Shown in pieces: positions 18,668 to 21,067 of a stretch of 41,682 nucleotides of DNA. The stretch comes from an uncultured Bacilli bacterium (GTDB lineage Bacteria > Bacillota_I > Bacilli_A > RF39 > UBA660): positions 1-41,682 of the forward strand of contig CANQQK010000002.1 of NCBI GenBank assembly GCA_947626015.1, read 5' to 3'. The stretch's first letter is position 1, and the number at the start of each line of letters is the position of its first letter. Position numbers and translations under genes: made by a program. The notes beneath the pieces are model-generated. The model saw nothing but the letters and a program-made list of their open reading frames with translations. It searched no databases and was not told the origin of the DNA.

Positions 18668-18695
18668 CTAAAAAGAGCTATCTTTTGATAGCTCT
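18668..18695 (-). terminator. Terminator after the 790-aa gene
   Basis: AGAGCTATC (18674-18682) pairs with GATAGCTCT (18687-18695) around a TTTT loop. A short U-run follows on the minus strand. Confidence 0.6.
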
Positions 18696-21067
18696 TATAC
18701 AGAATATATATCACCACTGCCGTTTTTATTTTGTTTATCTTGAACGTATTGGTCTACTGCAGAACACCAATCATGGGCACCTTTAATTGCAGGATATAAT
18801 CCTTTGTCTTCACCAACACCAATATTTTTTCGGCATTCTTCATAAATAAGGGTACTATCCTTATCAGAAGGAGAATAGAAATTATTTTGTAAATCCATTA
18901 AATTATAAACAAGATCGTTCATATATTTAACGATTGTAGTATATGTTGCATTCATTCCTTGAAGAATAGATGCTGCTTTTTCAGCGTCTAATGTGAAACT
19001 TTCATTTTCTTGTGTACCGCCGCTCATTGAACCTAATTGCTTAGCTGTAGGAAGAGTTGATCCAGTTTCAGATGTTTCAACAAGGTTAGATACTGGTTTT
19101 GTATCATCGGCTTCTTTTATGTACTTATCATATTCTTTTAAGACATCATCAGGAATTTCAACACCCTTTTCCTTTAGCAATGCTAATAAATCAGGATCTT
19201 CCTTTAATAGATCTAGATAAGATACATCTCCAGATTCAATACGTCCATTAAGATATTCTTGTAATGCTTTTCCATCCATACCTTGGAAAGTCTCAGATTT
19301 ACTTAATGGATATAATCCTTTATCTACTAATACATCGACAGCATCAGGGTTCTTTTCAGCATATTGTTCAATCGTCATACCAGAACTTTCAATTTCTTCT
19401 CGAATCTCATCTTTGGTTTTTAATTCCAATTCTTGAGCAAGAGTTGATTCTTCTTTTCCATCAGTTCCTCCATTAGGAACTTCTGCCTTTACTTCTGGTA
19501 TTTCTTTAGCTCCAGAGCCACTTCCACTGCCGCCACCAGATGATGAACCACCACCAGTTCCAGCAGAGCCATTATTTCCAGTGCTCTTGCCAGCTTCTGT
19601 TAAACCAGTAGCTCCAGAAAGACCTTGGCCATTATTGTTTCCGTTAGTACCACCTTGAGCATTATTAGGATCACCTGTTACGGTATCACCATTTGTAGGT
19701 GTTTCTCCCTTAGTAGTAAATCTTGAATCATCATTACCACCATTGTTTGAGCCGCTACCCTCAGAGTCCGTTTTTGGAGGTGTTGTATCAGGTACATCAG
19801 GGATTTCCTTCTTACCTTCGTAATCACCACCTGAGCCTTGGCCGCTAGCTTCACCATTGCTTCCGCTGTTGCCGCTCTTATCATTTGAGCCACCGTTATT
19901 ACGGTCGCCATCATTGGAACTACCATTATTTCGATCGCCATCATTTGATCCTTTATCGTGAACGTTTCCATCATCATAGGAACCCGAATCATCAACATTT
20001 TGTTTAGGTGGATGATCTTTATCATAATCTTTTTGACCGGCTTCATAACCATCATGATAATCATCTAAAGCTTTTCTTTCAGCTTGAGCATTATCATATC
20101 CAGCTTGCCATGAATCGCTCTTACCAGCATCTTCATTGCCACCTGTACTTCCGGCATTTCCACCGCTATTACCAGACTCACTTCCACCATCACCACTAGG
20201 AGTTGATCCGCCACTTGGGGTATTTCCTCCCGTGGTTCCAGAATCGGTATTACCACCAGGTGTTGTACCTCCAGTACTTGGAGTTGTACCTCCACCATTA
20301 TTTCCACTATCTCCACCGGTTACATTACCAGTTGATCCACCATTATTATCTCCGGAACTACTTCCACCACTTGGCGTTGTGCCTCCAGTACTTGGAGTGG
20401 TGCCACCCCCAGCATTTCCGCTAGAGTCTGAGCCTCCTCCTGTACTTCCAGAATCGGTACTTCCACCACCGCTTGGAGTTGTACTTCCGCTACTTCCTGG
20501 GTTAGAGCTTCCTCCGGTGTTTCCACCGTCTCCGCCACTAGGCGCAGTGCTCCCACCACTATTGCCAGAGCTACTTCCAGCATCTCCACTAGAAGATGAT
20601 CCGCCACCACTTGGAGTGCTTCCTCCACTTGGGGTTGAACCTCCTCCGCTTGGAGTTGATCCACCACCACTAGGTGTAGATCCACCACCTACACTACCAG
20701 AATCGGTACTTCCACCGCCACTCGGCGTTGTACTTCCACTAGTTCCGGGGTTGGTGTTACCACCACTTCCACTAGATGATCCACCACTTGAGTTACCACT
20801 TGAATCAGTATCCTCATATGGCCACCAACTTGGGCGATCTGTAGTACCTTCTGGTAATGCACCAGAACCTGAACTAGATTCAGGAACGGTATCACTAGCA
20901 CTTGAAGAACTACTACTAGAACCAGTATCACTAGTTGGAGTATCGGTATTACCTCCGATATCATCACGTTCATCTTCAGGTAACCAACTACCCTCTTCAG
21001 CATTATATACTGGTGGTATTTCGTTACTCCAATCATAACTTAGGTTTTCATTATTATTAAATTCCAT
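18695..21067 (-). CDS. Large Gly/Ser/Thr/Asn-rich low-complexity protein with C-terminal family B helical domain
   Basis: The likely start is ATG 21067 (MEFNNNENLSYDW), with SD GGAAGAAGG 6 nt upstream; the track starts at 21094. There is no signal peptide or TM segment. Track aa 47-328 and 370-529 are GGSTPSGGG-type low complexity. An acidic helical region covers aa 545-665. The last ~90 aa (nt 18734-19006) are homologous to the 108-aa protein at 11437-11763. Confidence 0.7.
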   Translation of the reverse strand: MEFNNNENLSYDWSNEIPPVYNAEEGSWLPEDERDDIGGNTDTPTSDTGSSSSSSSASDTVPESSSGSGALPEGTTDRPSWWPYEDTDSSGNSSGGSSSGSGGNTNPGTSGSTTPSGGGSTDSGSVGGGSTPSGGGSTPSGGGSTPSGGSTPSGGGSSSSGDAGSSSGNSGGSTAPSGGDGGNTGGSSNPGSSGSTTPSGGGSTDSGSTGGGSDSSGNAGGGTTPSTGGTTPSGGSSSGDNNGGSTGNVTGGDSGNNGGGTTPSTGGTTPGGNTDSGTTGGNTPSGGSTPSGDGGSESGNSGGNAGSTGGNEDAGKSDSWQAGYDNAQAERKALDDYHDGYEAGQKDYDKDHPPKQNVDDSGSYDDGNVHDKGSNDGDRNNGSSNDGDRNNGGSNDKSGNSGSNGEASGQGSGGDYEGKKEIPDVPDTTPPKTDSEGSGSNNGGNDDSRFTTKGETPTNGDTVTGDPNNAQGGTNGNNNGQGLSGATGLTEAGKSTGNNGSAGTGGGSSSGGGSGSGSGAKEIPEVKAEVPNGGTDGKEESTLAQELELKTKDEIREEIESSGMTIEQYAEKNPDAVDVLVDKGLYPLSKSETFQGMDGKALQEYLNGRIESGDVSYLDLLKEDPDLLALLKEKGVEIPDDVLKEYDKYIKEADDTKPVSNLVETSETGSTLPTAKQLGSMSGGTQENESFTLDAEKAASILQGMNATYTTIVKYMNDLVYNLMDLQNNFYSPSDKDSTLIYEECRKNIGVGEDKGLYPAIKGAHDWCSAVDQYVQDKQNKNGSGDIYSV
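19508..20956 (-). repeat. Low-complexity coding repeats (GGSTPSGGG, GGTTPSTGGTTP, SNDGDRNNG, KEIP[DE]V units)
   Basis: Read from the translation. For example, NPGTSGSTTPSGGGSTDSGSVGGGS (aa 115-139) recurs as NPGSSGSTTPSGGGSTDSGSTGGGS (aa 198-222). The repeats generate many spurious overlapping ORFs on both strands. Confidence 0.8.

Follow-up and report, generated by a model that had tools for sequence, protein, structure and literature searches.

Substrates of type VII secretion systems (T7SS) that carry their targeting domain at the C-terminus have been described from Staphylococcus aureus, where this position was shown experimentally for the T7SSb substrates TslA (PMC10730906) and TslM (PMC13560087), and such reverse lipases are also found at T7SSe and T7SSg loci (PMC11217815). 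As of August 2026 only two families of reverse substrates were known, both of them staphylococcal phospholipases, and it had been asked what other passengers there might be (PMC13560087). Here we describe a candidate for such a passenger in a 41,682-nucleotide stretch of DNA from an uncultured gut-type Bacilli bacterium (contig CANQQK010000002.1 of assembly GCA_947626015.1, positions 1 to 41,682; hereafter the window), in which a gene at 18695..21067 encodes a 790-amino-acid (aa) protein, hereafter the target, close to a cluster of genes around an EssC-type ATPase. Coordinates refer to the window and genes lie on the minus strand unless stated otherwise. From its sequence we lean towards the view that the target travels through the neighbouring EssC-type (type VII) system, either as a substrate of it or as a co-secreted passenger, and that its module for secretion or partner binding is C-terminal. 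An earlier note on this DNA described the target as the reverse of the usual T7SS toxin layout, and the sequence features that it listed are confirmed here, but C-terminal targeting domains are already known from TslA (PMC10730906) and TslM (PMC13560087); comparison of related loci indicates that the layout is real and conserved but has precedent, and the export and function of the target are putative, so that the proposal is partly supported.

A copy of a small cluster protein at the C-terminus of the target

The last ~100 residues of the target are a full copy of B1, the stand-alone 108-aa protein of the cluster (11437..11763) that is the closest paralogue of the target C-domain. Residues 688-788 of the target align with B1, encoded 6.9 kb away, without gaps and with 70% identity (E 6e-52), and these alignment statistics support the close paralogy that the earlier note had proposed. 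The C-domain (aa 688-790, 18698..19006; profile score 124.7 bits) is helical, keeps all residues that are invariant in the family, here called family B, and ends in a G-(D/N)-x-Y tail, making it a candidate T7SS targeting or partner-binding module.

Searches for other members revealed how the domain is used. A profile of three sequences gave 11 matches among 1.84 billion representatives, comprising eight stand-alone proteins of 101-124 aa and three longer proteins, P0005 (203 aa), P0007 (329 aa) and P0008 (325 aa), in which the domain lies at the extreme C-terminus; a 13-sequence profile, run in a word-indexed search, matched 15 clusters, every one of small proteins. In six-frame profile searches of every locus the domain was never N-terminal or internal, and it ended at most three residues from the C-terminus in all five fusion proteins, namely the target, its orthologues at the related loci L002 and L003, P0007 (L009/L010) and P0005 (L011-L013). 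Thus, the B domain is fused repeatedly to other N-terminal passengers while its own C-terminus is always free.

The genes encoding P0007 and P0005 fill the slot of the second family-B gene, directly beside essC and the 86-aa open reading frame (ORF) that accompanies it. P0005 has a LysM domain (35.4 bits, cut-off 20.9), an S/T linker and the B domain, with no signal peptide, and both P0007 and P0008 have a short helical N-terminus and a T/P/G-rich stretch before the B domain; the N-terminus of P0007 was considered as a relative of the middle domain of the target and showed no similarity to it. Because the L009 fusion is 87% identical to the stand-alone family-B protein next to it, and because it and the LysM fusion fall outside the clade of the target C-domains, both are taken as independent fusion events. 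Similarly, family A, a second group of small helical proteins of the cluster, is fused to SleB-like cell-wall hydrolases in the cluster and its relatives. A 507-aa protein at locus L014 (6489..8012 of that locus, GCA_949443275.1) consists of LysM, STQTE repeats, an A domain and a hydrolase, which means that the A domain can be internal, with a wall-binding passenger on its N-terminal side. The recurring passengers are wall-directed or linker-like, which points to the cell wall, outside the cytoplasm, as a destination that is reached with no Sec signal.

Regarding orthologues of the target itself, a scan of GTDB genomes detected family B in a single species of metagenome-assembled genome (MAG), L002, which carries a syntenic and intact orthologue of 715 aa with flanks matching those of the window (the divergent 138-aa gene, the tRNA array, and the S1-domain, 289-aa and 527-aa genes). 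In a third species, L003, the orthologue is at least 563 aa long, being cut by the contig end, and tRNA-Arg and tRNA-Pro alone separate it from the first gene of the cluster. In a fourth, L014, a 58%-identical homologue of the 138-aa gene directly abuts the DUF5684 gene, with no target between them; since the 138-aa gene abuts the cluster there, the target lies within the borders of the cluster as an accessory member.

All three orthologues have the same elements in the same order: an M(E/D)FNNN start with a LPEGTxxxPSWWxYxD motif, low complexity, an island of the form S(W/Y)Q(A/S)G(Y/W)D…GYE…HP, further low complexity with two to three EIP(D/E)(V/F/M) motifs, the helical middle domain, a linker and the B domain. 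The domain order of the target is hence conserved in the L002 and L003 orthologues, and it recurs in the independent fusions. Outside the C-domain the sequence diverges very fast between species, and the disordered part, while keeping its length, changes from G/S-rich in the target to T/P-rich or N/T-rich in the orthologues. The ratio of non-synonymous to synonymous substitution rates (dN/dS) among the orthologues, estimated with dS close to saturation, is ~0.2 in the C-domain and 0.4-0.57 in the middle domain; judged by these values, purifying selection acts on the C-domain in three species. A neighbour-joining tree groups the three target C-domains in a clade that is sister to the B1 clade, which implies that the fusion is old and predates these species.

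An identical 790-aa protein is encoded on an independent ENA assembly contig. No relatives were found in a scan of Joint Genome Institute (JGI) metagenomes with the orthologue alignment. Homologue searches with aa 520-790 and with an alignment of the middle domain also returned nothing, but are uninformative, as the exact sequence of the target is not in the collection searched, and the aa 520-790 query may also have overloaded the word index with its G/S-rich start. Among related contigs, that of L003 breaks off within the target orthologue, and those of L004 and L005 begin at the adjacent DUF5684 gene, next to which the orthologue would be expected upstream, so that short-read assemblies probably break in or beside the target gene; public protein sets therefore likely contain too few copies of the gene or truncated ones, and a collection of 15 billion proteins lacks the target itself.

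Family B, the EssC cluster and the architecture of the target gene

Members of family B share the features LQxxFY(S/G)P, D(C/S)T..Y and (H/Y/F)xW(C/V)xxVDxY, and B1-type members also have a short tail with G-(N/D)-x-(Y/W) near the C-terminus. An AlphaFold2 (AF2) model from a 17-sequence alignment is a three-helix hairpin (helices 16-50, 58-70 and 78-104) with a predicted local distance difference test score (pLDDT) of 75. The segment FYSPSDKD was considered as a YxxxD/E motif and rejected, as it is not conserved in the family (FHDMNNN, FYGPDTA) and lies in the turn, not after the hairpin. The target, B1 and B2 had no match in Pfam, NCBIfam or PHROGs, which argues against a phage origin, and sequence searches of the PDB gave coiled-coil noise only. 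Family B is thus an undescribed and rare family of Esx-sized helical proteins that is genomically tied to EssC and is not a demonstrable member of WXG100. Of the earlier proposal that the target ends in a small helical domain of the T7 cluster type, the part concerning a true paralogue of the cluster proteins, linked to EssC in relatives, stands; assignment of the domain to WXG100 or LXG could not be demonstrated.

The EssC ATPase (1543 aa, 4070..8701), the presumed motor and receptor of the system, matches TIGR03928 with 947.4 bits (cut-off 778.4) and has Pfam matches to FHA and FtsK_SpoIIIE. B1 and B2 are encoded 2.3-3 kb from essC, and together with the family-A gene they are located 6.5-7.7 kb from the target gene. 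B2 (115 aa, 11008..11355; profile 141 bits) is a family-B paralogue with a charged, EEEER-rich tail and a candidate heterodimer partner, sharing 37% identity with B1 (E 2e-15). The family-A small helical protein is encoded by a 142-aa ORF (11789..12217), and its domain also occurs in the hydrolase fusions mentioned above. Directly after essC, with its start overlapping the essC stop, is the 86-aa ORF (3810..4070), found next to EssC in all relatives with 98-99% identity in the two closest species and 56-67% in distant ones. Its position and size fit a YukD/EsaB-like ubiquitin-fold component, a possible identity; a YukD match was obtained for the L009 homologue only, at a sub-threshold 13 bits, and BLASTP of the window ORF against a Bacillus subtilis YukD sequence was negative.

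Gene order is kept in related contigs, all from MAGs of uncultured Bacilli/Firmicutes, and runs from the DUF5684 protein through one or more hydrolases, the repeat protein, A, B1, B2, a 128-aa protein, the HExxH membrane protein and a reversed gene of ~100 aa to EssC and the 86-aa ORF. Family-B genes, either B1 and B2 or a stand-alone B gene with a fusion, are equivalently placed in L001, L003-L005, L009-L011 and L014-L017. In the window the cluster comprises 4070..15460 together with 21279..21695, with conserved DUF5684/zinc-ribbon, HExxH, A, B1, B2 and 128-aa genes. The second of these intervals is the divergent 138-aa ORF (plus strand), which forms the outer cluster border in relatives and has a 72%-identical L002 orthologue in the same position. 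Compared by description, the cluster could not be matched to any of the T7SS subtypes c-j in PMC11217815, where no DUF5684, LysM or hydrolases are mentioned, and it may represent a subtype beyond b-j of that classification.

Several further cluster genes were examined. The 461-aa protein (9179..10564) has one transmembrane or lipobox-like segment (…ILSGCGV), a HEIGH (HExxH) motif, weak matches to Peptidase_M78 and reprolysin and 56-62% identity in all related clusters; it could serve the system as a membrane-bound metalloprotease, in loose analogy to the T7SSa mycosin. The gene for an A domain with a SleB-like hydrolase (13552..14520) aligns end to end with a 382-aa L003 protein at 49% identity, and has an in-frame stop near its 5' end; of the A domain, the callable ORF (13549..14325, TTG start, 258 aa) retains just the C-terminal half, and this effector gene may be decaying or have been restarted. 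The 396-aa protein (12297..13487), possibly another substrate, is helical over its first ~140 aa and then carries about ten AGGDAxP(I/L)xEE-type repeats; it is 42-54% identical across clusters and without a Pfam match. The L014 cluster contains an inserted Peptidase_C11 membrane protein, with prophage-like genes (CHAP-LysM, tail-fibre Peptidase_S74) upstream.

As the earlier note had it, thrS and tRNA genes separate the target from the T7 locus in the window: thrS (15521..17056) matches TIGR00418 with 509 bits and is accompanied by three tRNA genes and also by a 213-aa ORF. It is a short form of 511 aa that aligns from profile position 125, the N-terminal part missing, and in L003 neither thrS nor the 213-aa ORF lies between the cluster and the target orthologue. 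On the other side of the target, the 527-aa protein (24524..26107), with a folded N-terminal ~120 aa followed by ~350 aa of Ala/Pro/Thr/Val-rich low complexity, is a second long disordered protein near the target; no Pfam family matches it, and L002 encodes an orthologue of 43% identity.

The target coding sequence is an intact ORF of 790 aa from ATG, stop included. A TTG nine codons upstream of the ATG is a possible alternative start, and conservation among orthologues begins at M(E/D)FNNN. The ribosome-binding site GGAAGAAGG (21074-21082) lies 6 nucleotides (nt) upstream of the start, and a terminator-like hairpin of 10 bp followed by a T-run (18673..18696) begins at the stop codon. The separate promoter and terminator described earlier are both seen, the former as a promoter-like element at 21154..21182 (TTGAAA at 21182-21177, a 17-nt spacer and the extended -10 TGaTATAAA ending at 21154) read by eye as a consensus match only; it was not listed by the consensus promoter scan, the final base of the hexamer being A. 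Nested ORFs, among them a 300-aa Pro/Leu/Val-rich antisense ORF (20136..21038, plus strand) that mirrors the Gly/Ser/Thr codons of the target, are by-products of repeat composition and not genes.

The composition of the protein agrees with what was first noticed. No transmembrane segment or signal peptide was detected in the target (maximum 19-residue Kyte-Doolittle mean 0.49). The N-terminal region (aa 1-100, 20768..21067), likewise with no signal peptide, carries the MxFNNN start and the LPEGTxxxPSWWxYxD motif conserved in orthologues. The low-complexity region (aa 61-540, 19448..20887), 61% of the target, is 81% G/S/T/N/P/D with 5% order-promoting residues and low entropy, has repeats of the types GGSTPSGG and SNDGDRNNG, and contains internal duplications of 86 nt (79% identity) and 58 nt (81%) as well as tandem 30-nt and 21-nt units in its DNA. 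Within it, the conserved island at aa 316-355 (20003..20122), KSDSWQAGYDNAQAERKALDDYHDGYEAGQKDYDKDHPP, has recognisable counterparts in L002 (SYQAGYDAFNREQEALDQYREGYEAAKQEYEKNHP) and L003 (SYQSGWDNFQNEQKAQEEYRQGYEDAKKEWEANHP). Two copies of a motif repeated in the orthologues follow, EIP(D/E)VP(D/N)T at aa 421-428 (19784..19807) and KEIPEV at aa 521-526 (19490-19504). In the wider form (E/G)IP(D/E)(V/I/F/M) it is found in two to three copies per orthologue in the disordered region and once each in the fusions P0007 (FGIPDINY) and P0008 (FGIPEINY), and may be a linear docking or cleavage motif.

The acidic helical segment that had been placed at aa 545-665 is real and located at aa ~541-655 (19103..19447); it is helical in a single-sequence AF2 model with pLDDT ~80, is conserved in both orthologues and has an internal two-fold repeat (…E(Q/D)Y/L..K/E(N/D)PD…L.(D/E)KG(L/V)). 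A match of this middle domain to DUF1858 was rejected, being sub-threshold (18-21 bits, cut-off 32) and lacking the cysteines of that family, and Foldseek with a model of aa 521-790 gave no significant match.

Proposed export as a wall or surface protein and alternative explanations

The best reading of the target is likely that of a wall or surface protein whose export depends on EssC and whose targeting domain lies at the C-terminus. Its B domain would pair with a partner in the manner of Esx-type small proteins, most likely with B2 and alternatively with B1 or A; B2 suggests itself, as it and B1 are divergent paralogues encoded side by side, as EsxA/EsxB pairs are. Domain and partner would form a helical bundle, EssC would recognise the free tail (…G-D/N-x-Y-x-x-COOH) and/or the bundle, and export with no Sec signal would drag the 540-residue disordered region and the helical middle domain along. 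If the tail must stay free, passengers have to be attached N-terminally, and this would explain the "reverse" order. More speculatively, the exported product might remain within or upon the thick cell wall, there forming a flexible, mucin-like polymer, perhaps glycosylated, that lies at the surface or spans the wall and acts as a functional analogue of mycobacterial PE_PGRS, and the EIP(D/E)V motifs and the HExxH membrane protein of the cluster might reflect processing.

A number of observations weigh against this interpretation. In the window the target is 6.9 kb from B1 with its own promoter and terminator, and it is absent from the corresponding position in L014, one of the related species. 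No EsaA, EssA, EssB or WXG100 signature was recognisable among the cluster proteins scanned with Pfam and NCBIfam; as the YukD match is sub-threshold too, it is EssC that underpins the identification of a working T7SS. Family B has no statistically supported tie to WXG100, LXG or Lap families: none of its 17 members, nor the target, had a Pfam match to WXG100 at E<=1, and hhalign against a WXG100 alignment of five sequences gave a probability of 3%. The Foldseek list of PDB structures for family B is led by EsxA/EsxB/WXG100 entries (3zbh, 3gvm, 3o9o, 2vs0, 4j11; also 4lws and 7uh4), with LapD2 at rank 31, and these matches are suggestive but non-significant (E 0.8-4, TM-scores 0.3-0.55). That the disordered region acts at the wall or surface is speculative, being argued from composition and analogy. 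The LysM-B fusion of a relative lends such a destination indirect support, but LysM domains are also found in proteins that no dedicated system secretes, and the genomes behind the family and fusion comparisons are few.

Rather than being cargo, the target could be a structural or extracellular part of the apparatus, in which the B domain co-assembles with B1 and B2 at or outside the channel and the disordered region spans the wall or tethers the system to peptidoglycan, replacing an EsaA-like component. The lack of a recognisable EsaA, EssA or EssB in the cluster, the position of the target gene within the cluster borders in relatives and the LysM-B fusion, which fits a wall tether, all speak for such a part, as does the fact that G/S/T/P-rich segments are typical wall-spanning linkers. 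A fixed component is harder to reconcile with the completeness of the cluster in L014, where the target is missing at this position, with very fast evolution outside the C-domain, with the heterogeneity of the fusions (203, 329 and 715-790 aa) and with a target that has no transmembrane segment; on balance we consider this explanation unlikely.

Lower still is the probability of a cytoplasmic regulator or decoy that is not exported and whose B domain competes with B1 for B2 or EssC, thereby tuning or plugging secretion. A C-domain 70% identical to B1 with all family-invariant residues kept should bind the same partner, and a separate promoter and terminator would permit separate regulation; however, a decoy needs neither a 540-residue disordered extension nor the LysM domain of P0005, and the tail together with the strictly C-terminal placement in five fusions suggests that the signal end is actually used.

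Slightly less probable again is an antibacterial polymorphic toxin of reverse layout like TslA and TslM, in which the middle domain or N-terminal motif would be a toxin module that escaped recognition. The two reverse T7SS substrates known so far are toxins (PMC10730906, PMC13560087), and the parts of the target other than the C-terminus diverge rapidly between species. Nevertheless, no enzymatic or toxin domain was detected in Pfam, NCBIfam, PHROGs or PDB searches, 61% of the target (aa 61-540) is low complexity, and the target has no lipase domain and no adjacent array of immunity-like genes; the downstream 213-aa ORF, tail-anchored and acidic, is not conserved beside the L003 orthologue. 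That the target is not an antibacterial toxin is itself a speculative conclusion.

Finally, a non-functional target, whether a decaying fusion, a chimeric assembly or an ORF that runs spuriously through GC-rich repeats, is effectively refuted, as is the frame-shifted remnant that the earlier note had envisaged, since the identical ORF occurs in an independent assembly, orthologues of 715 and at least 563 aa are intact with the same islands in the same order, dN/dS is well below 1, and a ribosome-binding site and terminator are present, even though related contigs often break inside the gene and the low-complexity part also yields a long antisense ORF.

Returning to export through the EssC system, a broader proposal can be made with more reserve: it is possible, if doubtful, that family B is a portable C-terminal export tag of an undescribed T7SS subtype of uncultured Bacilli (EssC, A, B, and DUF5684 and HExxH membrane proteins, without EssA/EssB/EsaA) that mainly builds or remodels the envelope instead of delivering toxins, with LysM, hydrolase and mucin-like cargoes recruited repeatedly by N-terminal fusion to an Esx-like protein whose C-terminal signal stays free. 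The fusion appears to have arisen at least three times, with non-toxin passengers of wall or surface type (a mucin-like intrinsically disordered region, LysM and T/P-rich linkers). If the target is exported as suggested, C-terminal targeting would be a general and evolvable property of EssC machines, a minimal unit of ~100 aa whose tail is free would serve as a natural tag for secretion, and the role of T7SS in gut Bacilli would go beyond antagonism to include construction of the envelope. Two unannotated families (A and B) and a probable new type of T7SS gene cluster would also come to notice.

Comparison with described type VII substrates and partners

Like LXG toxins with their Lap partners (T7SSb), the target combines a modular helical domain, here the putative targeting domain, with a variable passenger in a system that encodes small helical proteins. 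Unlike them, where LXG (PF04740) is N-terminal, it has neither a PF04740 match nor a toxin domain, and its N-terminus is a short aromatic motif followed by low complexity.

Regarding the small proteins, family B resembles WXG100 (PF06013) and EsxA-EsxB in that its members are ~100-aa helical hairpins encoded as tandem paralogous pairs next to EssC, and its conserved C-terminal tail recalls the C-terminal signal of EsxB-type proteins. Unlike WXG100, the turn of family B is LQxxFY(S/G)P followed by a short extra helix, with no WXG, and the conserved Trp is located in the last helix.

The mycobacterial PE_PGRS proteins, substrates of T7SSa/ESX-5 (PMC11939664), similarly have a helical domain of ~100 aa fused to a long, polymorphic, Gly-rich low-complexity region, and they are surface-localised with fast-evolving repeats (PMC11939664); their likeness to the target is one of analogy only. 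The PE domain is N-terminal and of an unrelated family (PF00934, no match in the target), the repeats are GGA/GGN as opposed to GGSTPSGG/SNDGDRNNG, and both the phylum and the type of T7SS differ.

The closest parallel is with TslA (Tsl1) and TslM (Tsl2) of S. aureus, which have an N-terminal passenger and, at the extreme C-terminus, a helical domain thought to carry T7SS targeting (PMC10730906, PMC13560087). Neither they nor the target have a Sec signal, and their dependence on small helical partners encoded by the system has a putative counterpart in the target. The target has no sequence similarity to Tsl, LXG or Lap families. In Tsl a phospholipase toxin domain is accompanied by adjacent partner and immunity genes, whereas the target, for which no lipase was found, has a passenger made up of a ~540-aa low-complexity region and a small helical domain, with no conserved immunity-like neighbour and no adjacent Lap-like gene. 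The Tsl C-domain is LXG-like, ~200 aa long and distinct from its Lap-like partners, while that of the target is a 70%-identical copy of a stand-alone protein of ~100 aa. The target and its orthologues may thus represent a third, unrelated candidate family of T7SS substrates in the reverse arrangement, one in which the C-terminal module is a copy of a stand-alone Esx-sized protein.

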